Source of the DNA: Escherichia coli
GTDB lineage: Bacteria; Pseudomonadota; Gammaproteobacteria; Enterobacterales; Enterobacteriaceae
NCBI RefSeq assembly: GCF_030384885.1
Contig: NZ_CP128613.1
DNA: 64,000 nucleotides
Strand: one strand, 5' to 3'
Shown here: positions 20,125 to 23,063 of the stretch, piece after piece
Position numbering within the stretch: position 1 is the stretch's first letter
How the letters are laid out: every line of letters starts with the position of its first letter
The notes under the pieces: generated by a model
What the model was told of the DNA's origin: nothing
Databases searched by the model: none
What the model saw: only the letters and a program-made list of their open reading frames with translations
Translations under genes and position numbers: made by a program

Positions 20125-21741
20125 ATGCTCAGTCAAATTCAACGCTTTGGCGGCGCGATGTTCACGCCAGTGCTGCTGTTTCCCTTCGCCGGGATTGTAG
20201 TGGGTCTTGCCATCTTGCTGCAAAACCCGATGTTTGTCGGGGAATCACTGACCGATCCGAACAGTTTATTCGCGCAAATCGTACACATCATTGAAGAGGG
20301 CGGTTGGACGGTATTCCGTAATATGCCGCTGATTTTTGCTGTCGGTTTACCCATTGGCCTTGCTAAGCAAGCGCAGGGGCGTGCTTGTCTGGCGGTGATG
20401 GTGAGTTTCCTGACCTGGAACTATTTCATCAATGCGATGGGAATGACCTGGGGAAGCTACTTCGGCGTCGATTTCTCTCAGGACGCAGTGGCAGGTAGCG
20501 GGCTGACCATGATGGCCGGAATTAAAACCCTCGATACCAGCATTATCGGCGCGATTATCATTTCTGGCATTGTGACGGCGCTGCATAACCGTCTGTTCGA
20601 TAAAAAACTGCCGGTTTTTCTCGGCATTTTTCAGGGGACATCTTATGTGGTGATTATCGCCTTCCTGGTGATGATCCCATGCGCGTGGCTGACATTGCTC
20701 GGCTGGCCAAAAGTACAAATGGGGATTGAATCTCTGCAAGCGTTCCTGCGTTCGGCGGGTGCGCTTGGGGTCTGGGTTTACACCTTCCTCGAACGCATTC
20801 TGATCCCAACCGGTTTACACCACTTCATCTACGGACCGTTTATCTTTGGTCCGGCAGCTGTTGAGGGCGGCATTCAGATGTACTGGGCGCAGCATCTGCA
20901 AGAGTTCAGTCTGAGCGCCGAGCCGCTGAAATCGTTGTTCCCGGAAGGCGGTTTTGCCCTGCACGGTAACTCAAAAATCTTTGGTGCCGTGGGCATTTCT
21001 TTAGCGATGTACTTCACTGCTGCACCGGAAAATCGGGTAAAAGTGGCGGGCTTGCTGATCCCTGCCACCTTAACCGCCATGCTGGTGGGAATTACCGAAC
21101 CGCTGGAATTTACCTTCCTGTTCATTTCACCGTTGCTGTTTGCGGTACACGCCGTGCTGGCGGCCTCAATGTCGACCGTAATGTATCTCTTTGGTGTGGT
21201 GGGCAACATGGGCGGTGGTCTGATAGACCAGGTTTTACCGCAAAACTGGATCCCGATGTTCAGCAACCATGCGGATATGATGCTGACCCAAATCGCCATT
21301 GGGTTGTGCTTTACCCTGCTGTACTTCGTGGTTTTCCGCACCCTGATTCTGCAATTCAACATGTGCACGCCGGGACGTGAAGATGCGGAGGTGAAGCTCT
21401 ACTCGAAAGCCGAATACAAAGCCTCGCGAGGCCAAACTACCGCTGCAGAGCCCAAAAAAGAGCTGGAGCAGGCTGCCGGCATCCTGCAAGCCCTGGGCGG
21501 GGTGGGCAATATCTCCAGTATCAACAATTGCGCGACGCGTCTACGTATTGCACTGCATGACATGTCACAAACGCTGGATGACGAAGTCTTTAAAAAGCTG
21601 GGAGCGCATGGCGTCTTCCGTAGTGGTGATGCCATTCAGGTGATCATTGGTTTGCATGTTTCCCAGCTGCGTGAACAGCTCGATAGCTTAATTAATTCTC
21701 ATCAATTAGCAGAAAAAGTTGCCATTACGGAGGCAGTATAA
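20125..21741 (+). CDS. glvC: alpha-glucoside-specific PTS EIICB (fused IIC and IIB, GlvC/MalX-like), apparently intact
   Basis: 538 aa from ATG at 20125 with RBS aagagga 7 nt upstream; membrane IIC domain then C-terminal IIB with CATRLR cysteine motif. Confidence 0.85.
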
Positions 21742-23063
21742 TGACCAAATTCTCAGTGGTTGTCGCAGGCGGTGGAAGCACCTTTACGCCAGGCATCGTG
21801 TTGATGTTATTGGCGAATCAGGATCGTTTCCCGCTTCGCGCACTGAAATTTTATGATAACGATGGCGCACGGCAGGAAGTGATTGCCGAAGCCTGTAAAG
21901 TTATTCTTAAAGAGAAAGCGCCGGACATTGAGTTTAGCTACACCACCGATCCTGAAGTGGCGTTCAGCGACGTTGATTTTGTCATGGCGCACATTCGTGT
22001 CGGCAAATATCCGATGCGCGAACTGGATGAAAAAATACCGCTGCGCCACGGCGTTGTCGGTCAGGAAACTTGCGGACCCGGCGGAATAGCGTACGGCATG
22101 CGATCTATCGGTGGCGTCCTGGAACTGGTGGATTATATGGAAAAATATTCACCAAATGCCTGGATGCTCAACTACTCCAACCCGGCAGCAATTGTGGCAG
22201 AAGCCACACGTCGTCTGCGCCCGAACGCGAAAATCCTCAACATCTGTGACATGCCAATCGGTATTGAAAGTCGGATGGCGCAGATTGTTGGGCTGCAAGA
22301 TCGCAAACAGATGCGCGTGCGCTATTACGGCCTGAACCACTTTGGCTGGTGGACATCAATTGAAGATTTGCAGGGCAACGACCTGATGCCCCAGCTGCGG
22401 CAATATGTCTCAAAGCACGGTTATGTTCCACCGCAGCAAGATACGCATACCGAAGCGAGCTGGAACGACACCTATGCAAAAGCGCGGGATGTACAGGCAC
22501 TGGACCCGGATACATTGCCGAACACCTATCTGAAATATTATCTCTTCCCGGATTATGTCGTTCAGCATTCCAACCCTGAACATACCCGCGCGAATGAGGT
22601 GATGGAACATCGCGAGAAACAGGTTTTCGATGCTTGCCGCGCCATTACGGCGGCAGGAAATTCAGCGGCGGGCAAGCTGGAAATTGACGAACATGCGTCA
22701 TACATCGTCGATCTGGCGGCGGCAATTGCCTTCAACACTCAGGAGCGGATGTTGCTGATTGTGCCTAACAACGGGGCAATTCATAACTTTGATGATGAAG
22801 CGATGGTCGAGATCCCGTGTCTGGTCGGGCACAACGGACCAGAACCACTGGTGGTCGGCGATATCCCGCAGTTTCAGAAAGGGTTAATGAGTCAGCAAGT
22901 GGCGGTGGAAAAACTGGTCGTGGACGCCTGGGAACTGCGTTCATATCAGCACCTGTGGCAGGCGATTACGTTGTCGAAAACGGTACCGAGCGCCGCGGTC
23001 GCCAAAGCTATTCTGGATGAGTTGCTGGAGGCCAACAAAGCGTACTGGCCAGAGTTACGTTAA
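21741..23063 (+). CDS. glvG: 6-phospho-alpha-glucosidase, glycoside hydrolase family 4 (GlvA/GlvG-like), intact
   Basis: 440 aa; N-terminal NAD-binding fold [12 protein letters not shown] typical of GH4. Confidence 0.85.

Follow-up and report, generated by a model that had tools for sequence, protein, structure and literature searches.

The closest described relatives of the locus treated here are the aglA-aglB genes of Klebsiella pneumoniae and the glvA and glvC genes of Bacillus subtilis. Together, aglA and aglB were reported to enable Escherichia coli K-12 to grow on methyl-alpha-glucoside, on isomaltose and on the five sucrose isomers trehalulose, turanose, maltulose and leucrose as well as palatinose (PMC5309279, with reference to Pikis 2006 and Thompson 2001), and AglA is described as a route for maltitol uptake (PMC12728616). 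According to the first of these sources, the Bacillus glvA and glvC genes confer on K-12 a crr-dependent growth on isomaltose, panose and other alpha-glucosides, with isomaltitol as a further addition, and Crr dependence is known for AglA and also for B. subtilis GlvC with E. coli as the expression host (PMC5309279). The K-12 homologues themselves are called ‘cryptic or nonfunctional truncated proteins’ in that account, with reference to Reizer 1994. The subject of this study is the corresponding locus, the glvBC-glvG operon, in a stretch of 64,000 nucleotides of an E. coli chromosome that begins at dnaA (contig NZ_CP128613.1 of RefSeq assembly GCF_030384885.1), referred to as the window. Both genes are intact there, and the operon is probably a functional orthologue of Klebsiella AglA/AglB, in which alpha-glucosides would be taken up through the phosphotransferase system (PTS) and hydrolyzed, with YidP as the repressor and CRP as the activator.

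The structural genes and the two regulators that flank them are arranged as follows.

20125..21741, plus strand: glvBC, single-chain PTS enzyme IICB (EIICB) of the alpha-glucoside subfamily, 538 amino acids
21741..23063, plus strand: glvG, full-length 6-phospho-alpha-glucosidase of glycoside hydrolase family 4 (GH4), 440 amino acids
19113..19829, minus strand: yidP, GntR/HutC-family regulator, divergent from the operon (Pfam PF00392 and PF07702)
23060..23953, minus strand: yidL, AraC-type regulator, convergent with glvG (Pfam HTH_AraC and AraC_binding)

An initial sequence-only reading of the window had proposed intact EIICB and GH4 open reading frames (ORFs) of 538 and 440 codons, and their coordinates and lengths match both the ORF list and the RefSeq annotation. 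Its naming of the flanks as GntR-type yidP and AraC-type yidL is likewise borne out, by Pfam and by the annotation of an identical genome. Over positions 19000-24500, the window shows 100% identity with strain 2013C-4282 (NZ_CP027579.1; isolated from human stool, USA), where the two structural genes are unflagged coding sequences (CDSs) named ‘PTS sugar transporter subunit IIB’ and ‘6-phospho-alpha-glucosidase’, and yidP is annotated as WP_001300779.1. The glvBC frame is listed from 20104 to 21741 on the plus strand; translation from the ATG at 20125 gives the 538-residue protein, and this start is conserved across genera. It is preceded by GAGGA at 20113-20117, and the ribosome-binding site and start codon form a conserved block in the cross-genus alignment. 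The glvG start overlaps the glvBC stop by one base. Both ORFs are long and strongly conserved, which excludes chance ORFs.

That K-12 carries a split glvC and a truncated glvG had been stated in the sequence-only reading, and comparison with a K-12-type genome (O16:H48, L002) confirmed it. Base-by-base alignment of window positions 19000-24500 to that genome revealed 154 substitutions and one gap, with 96.9% DNA identity outside the deletion. The K-12 frames are not intact, as the alignment contains exactly one amber codon and one out-of-frame deletion of 508 bp:

21229..21231, plus strand: codon 369 of glvBC, CAG (Gln) in the window and amber TAG in K-12, where it splits glvC from glvB
22334..22841, plus strand: 508-bp segment deleted in K-12, with 8-bp direct repeats GAACCACT at 22334-22341 and 22842-22849

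K-12 retains one of the two GAACCACT copies, and direct repeats of which one is kept are the signature of a repeat-mediated deletion. Since 508 is not a multiple of 3, the K-12 GlvG protein keeps His200, then shifts frame and stops after 212 residues. The Prokaryotic Genome Annotation Pipeline (PGAP) flags the EIICB gene of the same genome with ‘internal stop’ and the GH4 gene as ‘frameshifted’.

By family criteria, GlvBC is an EIICB of the alpha-glucoside PTS. It scores 958.1 bits against TIGR02005 (‘alpha-glucoside-specific PTS IIBC’; cut-off 607.3) over residues 2-523 of 538, and the NCBIfam models for glucose, GlcNAc and MalX transporters all remain below their own cut-offs. Pfam recognizes EIIC (PF02378) at residues 10-346 and EIIB (PF00367) at residues 453-482, and the protein can be divided into three parts:

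GlvBC residues ~10-346: EIIC domain
GlvBC residues ~390-408: extra hydrophobic helix
GlvBC residues ~450-520: EIIB domain

The motifs GLHH (230-233) and GITEP (322-326) are present, as is the phosphorylatable Cys469 in NNCATRLR. Over its full 538 residues, GlvBC is 81% identical and 91% similar to its orthologue AglA of K. pneumoniae ATCC 13883. A Pfam scan detects no IIA domain in GlvBC, and on this basis the transporter should depend on IIA-Glc.

GlvG can similarly be assigned, by family criteria, to the GH4 6-phospho-alpha-glucosidases (EC 3.2.1.122; AglB/GlvA/MalH type). Pfam identifies PF02056 (E 1.1e-66, residues 6-184) and PF11975 (E 3.5e-55, residues 195-415). In a sequence search of the PDB, GlvG matches the 6-phospho-alpha-glucosidase 6DUX (E 4.8e-275, ~88% identical by eye) and B. 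subtilis GlvA, 1U8X (E 4.7e-225, 437 residues aligned, ~73-75% identical), with 6-phospho-beta-glucosidases giving weaker matches (1S6Y, 2.8e-62; 1UP7, 2e-41). Identity to K. pneumoniae AglB is ~89%. Among NCBIfam models, none exceeds its cut-off on GlvG, the sole match being a sub-threshold one to an alpha-galactosidase subfamily. The protein contains GGGS at 10-13, NICDMP with Cys169-Asp170, GLNH with His200, and Tyr263, and its Cys169, Asp170, His200 and Tyr263 align to C171, D172, H202 and Y265 of GlvA. Presumably these residues have the roles known from the structural literature on GlvA, with GGGS binding NAD, the Cys and His acting as Mn2+ ligands, and the Asp and Tyr being catalytic.

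Gene content and gene integrity were observed directly, and the steps of the proposed pathway are drawn from the orthologues. Phosphate would be transferred from phosphoenolpyruvate through EI, HPr and IIA-Glc (Crr) to Cys469 of GlvBC, which would import alpha-linked glucosides and phosphorylate C6 of the glucosyl moiety. With NAD+ and Mn2+ (Cys169 and His200 as putative ligands, Asp170 and Tyr263 for catalysis), GlvG would convert the 6'-phospho-alpha-glucoside to glucose-6-phosphate and the aglycone. Likely substrates are trehalulose, turanose, maltulose, leucrose, palatinose, isomaltose, maltose, maltitol and methyl-alpha-glucoside; for maltose, support comes through B. subtilis GlvA/GlvC. 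The sequence-only reading had also mentioned arbutin, and this part of it is unsupported, while its intact alpha-glucoside PTS operon facing a broken K-12 copy stands. Arbutin is a beta-glucoside, so that nothing here supports it as a substrate. It persists as a legacy label, glvC being still listed as an arbutin permease (Touchon 2009, PMC2617782).

Control of the operon would fall to YidP, which combines a GntR winged helix-turn-helix domain (PF00392, residues 3-64) with a UTRA effector domain (PF07702, residues 87-224) and is listed as uncharacterised (PMC4797297). Of 48 loci checked in other genera, from Citrobacter to Vibrio, 46 have a divergent yidP homologue adjoining glvBC-glvG, and the other two are truncated upstream. 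YidP is the predicted cognate repressor of the operon. The window and the K-12-type genome share one YidP accession although the gene differs between them at 27 nucleotides (3.8%), which denotes strong constraint even where the structural genes are dead; this constraint hints that YidP may have targets beyond glv.

Scanning for promoters and terminators returned matches inside coding sequence, no more numerous than in shuffled sequence, and no convincing operon terminator. Cross-genus footprinting was used for the regulatory sites in place of the promoter scan, and it points to three elements between yidP and glvBC:

19946..19979, no strand assigned: operator-like inverted repeat, AGATGTCTAC...GTAGATCT, with half-sites TGTCTAC at 19949-19955 and GTAGATC at 19970-19976
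19993..20014, no strand assigned: CRP-like site, AAGCATGAAAGCGATCACGAAT, its center ~60 bp upstream of the inferred transcription start
20052..20057, plus strand: -10-like hexamer TATCCT, TATTCT in most other genera, in a conserved alignment block and with a weak -35

The inverted repeat has 17-nt arms that are 82% complementary, with zero gap between them, and half-sites that we take to resemble HutC-family boxes. The pattern ATGTCTA-N13-AAAAGTAGAC is conserved in an intergenic alignment of 25 sequences from Enterobacterales, Aeromonas and Vibrio. This TGTCTA...TAGACA repeat is the predicted YidP operator, at which YidP would repress until a sugar-phosphate inducer is present. The block ATGAA.GCGATCACGAAT, in the CRP-like site, is the most conserved non-coding one in the cross-genus alignment. 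Across six E. coli alleles the site is near-invariant, with one substitution, in M114, and the conserved control blocks as a whole are essentially unchanged. The resemblance to the TGTGA-N6-TCACA consensus was judged by eye; CRP-cAMP would activate here from a class-I-like position, and TATCCT, ~60 bp downstream of the center of the site, is part of a candidate CRP-dependent promoter for glvBC.

The 5' leader of glvBC (window 20060-20100) is more variable between genera. Two features common to other Enterobacteriaceae, the element CAGGCC...AAGGCCTC and the block CCCTAC-AGGTTGTTA, are both degenerate in E. coli (CAGGCC...CAGGCTTC), and some genera have insertions of 40-60 bp. A leader RNA element was considered and rejected, as the leader folds no better than shuffled sequences (z = +1.35) and an Rfam scan assigned no family to it. 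The single match in that scan, to a snoRNA inside glvBC, is sub-threshold (24 bits, gathering threshold 40) and was taken as chance.

The arrangement yidP-glvBC-glvG, with the regulator divergent, recurs in Citrobacter, Klebsiella, Raoultella, Kluyvera, Enterobacter, Cedecea, Buttiauxella, Serratia, Proteus, Pectobacterium, Aeromonas and Vibrio, and in many Enterobacteriaceae the cassette adjoins yidE as it does in E. coli (yidE-yidP-glvBC-glvG). The GC content of the locus (0.48-0.54) is like that of its flanks, and on the strength of this composition and of the gene order common to other Enterobacteriaceae, horizontal acquisition was rejected. On the sequence evidence, the intact operon is the ancestral state in E. 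coli. The gene yidL is a neighbor outside the conserved cassette, as it adjoins glvG in four of the 48 other-genus loci, followed by yidK in those four, and lies within 5 kb in two more. In the window, the stop codons of glvG and yidL overlap by 4 nt (23060-23063), and no intrinsic terminator was detected between the two genes; convergent transcription could couple their expression.

Selection on the cassette was gauged by comparing the window with other intact E. coli alleles. The ratio of non-synonymous to synonymous divergence (dN/dS) is 0.025-0.034 for glvBC, 0.034-0.047 for glvG and 0.01-0.03 for yidP, at a dS of 0.12-0.15. The underlying differences number 43-51 synonymous and 4-6 non-synonymous for glvBC, and 32-38 and 4-6, respectively, for glvG. 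Near-exclusively synonymous change over such depth argues for function. As to the strain itself, the window gyrB (3611-6025) is at least 99% identical in 18 of 5,424 genomes, one further genome reaches 98.6% and none of the others exceeds 97.8%, and dS between the window and mainstream alleles is 0.11-0.17, against 0.03-0.09 among mainstream alleles. Judging from these comparisons, the strain belongs to a rare, deep-branching lineage of E. coli, which may be of cryptic-clade type.

How widespread the intact operon is was determined in 5,426 complete E. coli genomes, glvG being counted as full length if at least 80% of the gene was found in one place:

glvG full length: 1,650 of 5,426 genomes (~30%)
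glvG with the 508-bp deletion: ~2,600 of 5,426 (~48%), sampled rows showing 63% coverage in two pieces
glvG without a match: ~1,150 of 5,426 (~21%)

O157:H7, O145 and E. coli B REL606 are among the genomes with an intact operon, as are isolates of animal, water and soil origin. Both glvBC and glvG are unflagged in all five annotations of full-length-glvG genomes that were examined (2013C-4282, O157:H7, REL606, M114 and an O9:H10 strain). The intact state is thus common and already annotated, and it is not special to this strain; glvC also figures in a table of genes variably present between E. coli groups (Touchon 2009, PMC2617782). As for the two K-12 lesions, a 31-mer with the amber TAG occurs in 348 genomes, and among the matches listed (30) all are K-12 strains or laboratory derivatives; the CAG 31-mer at codon 369 occurs in 3,839 genomes. 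The glvC/glvB amber appears to be K-12-specific, and no glvG allele is commoner in the species than the one with the 508-bp deletion. The K-12 state would have resulted from an amber in glvBC in the K-12 lineage and the widespread repeat-mediated deletion in glvG.

The origin of this deletion was approached through five deletion alleles, from the K-12-type genome and four natural isolates (L086-L089). Their yidL sequences (window 23064-23953) are identical in all five. Upstream, by contrast, their haplotypes for glvBC and the 5' part of glvG vary and correspond to those of different intact alleles; over the latter part, for example, NCTC9699 equals REL606 and O103:H2 the O9:H10 strain. These data suggest a single deletion event that was spread by recombination, five alleles being too few to settle the matter. 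Recurrent deletion at the 8-bp repeat was considered since deleted and intact alleles have identical glvBC proteins and glvG 5' haplotypes in common; the one yidL haplotype in all five deleted alleles disfavors it, with the same caveat of sample size. In the four natural isolates, glvBC is an intact CDS (1885-3501 in L086-L089), in some cases under the accessions found in intact-operon strains (WP_000952127.1, WP_000952141.1). Its retention without the hydrolase may reflect either recent loss of glvG or another role of the transporter.

With so many damaged alleles, the intact operon might be viewed as dispensable and devoid of current function, a pseudogene in waiting that has yet to acquire its lesion. 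The locus is indeed being lost in the species, as judged from the glvG deletion in ~48% of genomes, the lack of glvG in ~21%, the extra K-12 amber, and the loss in some strains of yidP, or of yidL with adjoining genes. However, neutral drift cannot account for the synonymous excess in glvBC and glvG, no functional motif is damaged, and the 1,650 genomes that keep full-length glvG come from diverse sources, so that this explanation is very improbable.

Losses also extend beyond the structural genes. Nissle 1917, which we take to be a B2 strain, lacks ~3.9 kb equivalent to window positions ~19217-23087, comprising most of yidP, glvBC, glvG and the 3' end of yidL. In their place, ~90 bp of other sequence lie between yidE and a shortened yidL of 867 rather than 894 bp (L003 5905-5995). 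The entire cassette would have been lost in this strain. In REL606 (L004 952-1589), glvBC-glvG is intact and yidP is frameshifted by a 79-bp deletion equivalent to window 19569-19647, which lies between short CCGT-containing repeats. The junction 31-mer of this deletion is found in 248 of the 5,426 genomes, many of them natural isolates, and NCTC9699 carries both the yidP and the glvG deletions. The 79-bp deletion may represent a naturally derepressed allele. The operon is likewise intact in the O9:H10 pig isolate Res13-Lact-PEB21-38-A, where yidP has an internal stop (L007 873-1589); the region from yidL to yidI is replaced there by a degraded IS200/IS605 tnpA and an intact TnpB/InsQ, with a 75-bp remnant of yidL (L007 4820-6601).

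Several observations weigh against a functional AglA/AglB-like operon in the window strain. The genes crr, ptsH and ptsI, on whose products transport would depend, are located outside the window, and the E. coli leader departs from that of other genera in the GGCC...GGCC element. A simple consensus scan for sigma-70 promoters found no strong one for glvBC, as expected if expression is activator-dependent, and this equally allows weak expression. A literature search yielded no expression or growth data for E. coli with an intact operon and no study testing the native operon or YidP. Classical identification tables reportedly score essentially 0% of E. coli as fermenting methyl-alpha-D-glucoside. 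If GlvG were expressed in ~30% of strains, fermentation should be seen in a portion of them, as PtsG already forms methyl-alpha-glucoside-6-phosphate; the negatives hint at an operon that may be under tight repression or hard to induce in such tests. Negative results with palatinose, turanose, maltitol and methyl-alpha-glucoside are reported for the E. coli type strain (PMC4334874), a finding that is uninformative on intact alleles, as is a table for E. albertii.

E. coli has cryptic operons such as bgl, asc and chb, and an alternative reading of the above is that the glv genes are sound and silent as well, being unexpressed in ordinary laboratory or diagnostic conditions and giving an alpha-glucoside phenotype only upon loss of the repressor or in response to an unusual inducer or niche signal. 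Such silence would account for the lack of a strong promoter in the consensus scan and for the reported methyl-alpha-glucoside negatives in a species in which ~30% of genomes have full-length glvG. The natural yidP-null alleles beside intact glvBC-glvG, that is, the 79-bp deletion, which 248 genomes carry, E. coli B among them, and the internal stop in the O9:H10 strain, form the pattern expected if repressor loss activates the system, and the word ‘cryptic’ has been applied to the K-12 homologues (PMC5309279). On the other hand, dN/dS values of 0.02-0.05 over a deep divergence and the conserved promoter, CRP and operator blocks imply that the operon is expressed and selected somewhere, in which case ‘cryptic’ would mean conditionally expressed and not functionless. 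Moreover, the orthologous Klebsiella system is described as inducible and functional (Thompson 2001, via PMC5309279 and PMC12728616). A silent operon is for these reasons a minority prospect, unlikely though far from negligible, and an operon working as AglA/AglB do remains the favored interpretation.

The gene families, the mechanism and the pseudogene status of the K-12 genes are already known, and annotations of other E. coli genomes routinely include the intact genes. The present analysis adds the exact positions of the lesions, the frequencies of the three glvG states, an amber that is apparently specific to K-12, deletions that are repeat-mediated, and the predicted operator and CRP site. 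The locus is a worked example of K-12 as a poor proxy for the gene content of its species, one of its lesions being apparently specific to a laboratory lineage and the other the commonest allele in E. coli. A broader proposal, put forward tentatively and with somewhat less than an even chance of holding, is that native glv is a functional, strain-variable trait, supporting growth on sucrose isomers (palatinose etc.), isomaltose and panose in ~30% of strains. It would exist in three states: repressible and intact, as in the window and O157:H7; derepressed through yidP-null alleles beside an intact operon, as in REL606 and at least 248 genomes; and dead, perhaps through one recombination-spread 508-bp deletion with a single yidL haplotype. 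Industry moved the Bacillus glvA and glvC genes into K-12 for the use of isomaltose and panose, as reported in PMC5309279. If the proposal is true, the isomaltose/panose route introduced into K-12 by engineering may already exist in common B-type production strains, and intact alleles, together with the yidP-null alleles of E. coli B, might supply this capacity natively. The glv polymorphism could then also bear on adaptation to niche or diet.

Among the known systems, glvC/glvB/glvG of E. coli K-12 occupy the same locus as the operon in the window, with the same YidP accession and a nearly identical regulatory region; K-12 differs in the TAG at codon 369 and in the missing 508 bp of glvG, neither of which affects the window. 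The aglA-aglB genes of K. pneumoniae (AglB structure PDB 6DUX/6DVV) have the same order as in E. coli, EIICB and then GH4. AglA has, like GlvBC, its C domain before its B domain and no IIA domain. The Klebsiella group and other genera also share with E. coli the divergent GntR/HutC regulator, and many Enterobacteriaceae the yidE neighborhood. In contrast to Klebsiella agl, the E. coli locus has a diverged 5' leader, and it is followed by yidL and yidK, genes that are absent from this position in most other genera. The glvA-glvR-glvC (malA/malP) maltose PTS of B. subtilis follows the same logic, an EIICB without IIA being combined with a phospho-alpha-glucosidase, and GlvA shares the catalytic Cys-Asp, His and Tyr positions with GlvG. 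The Bacillus operon differs in its gene order, with glvA first, and its regulator GlvR is of the RpiR type and not of the GntR/HutC type, with catabolite control exerted via CcpA rather than CRP.

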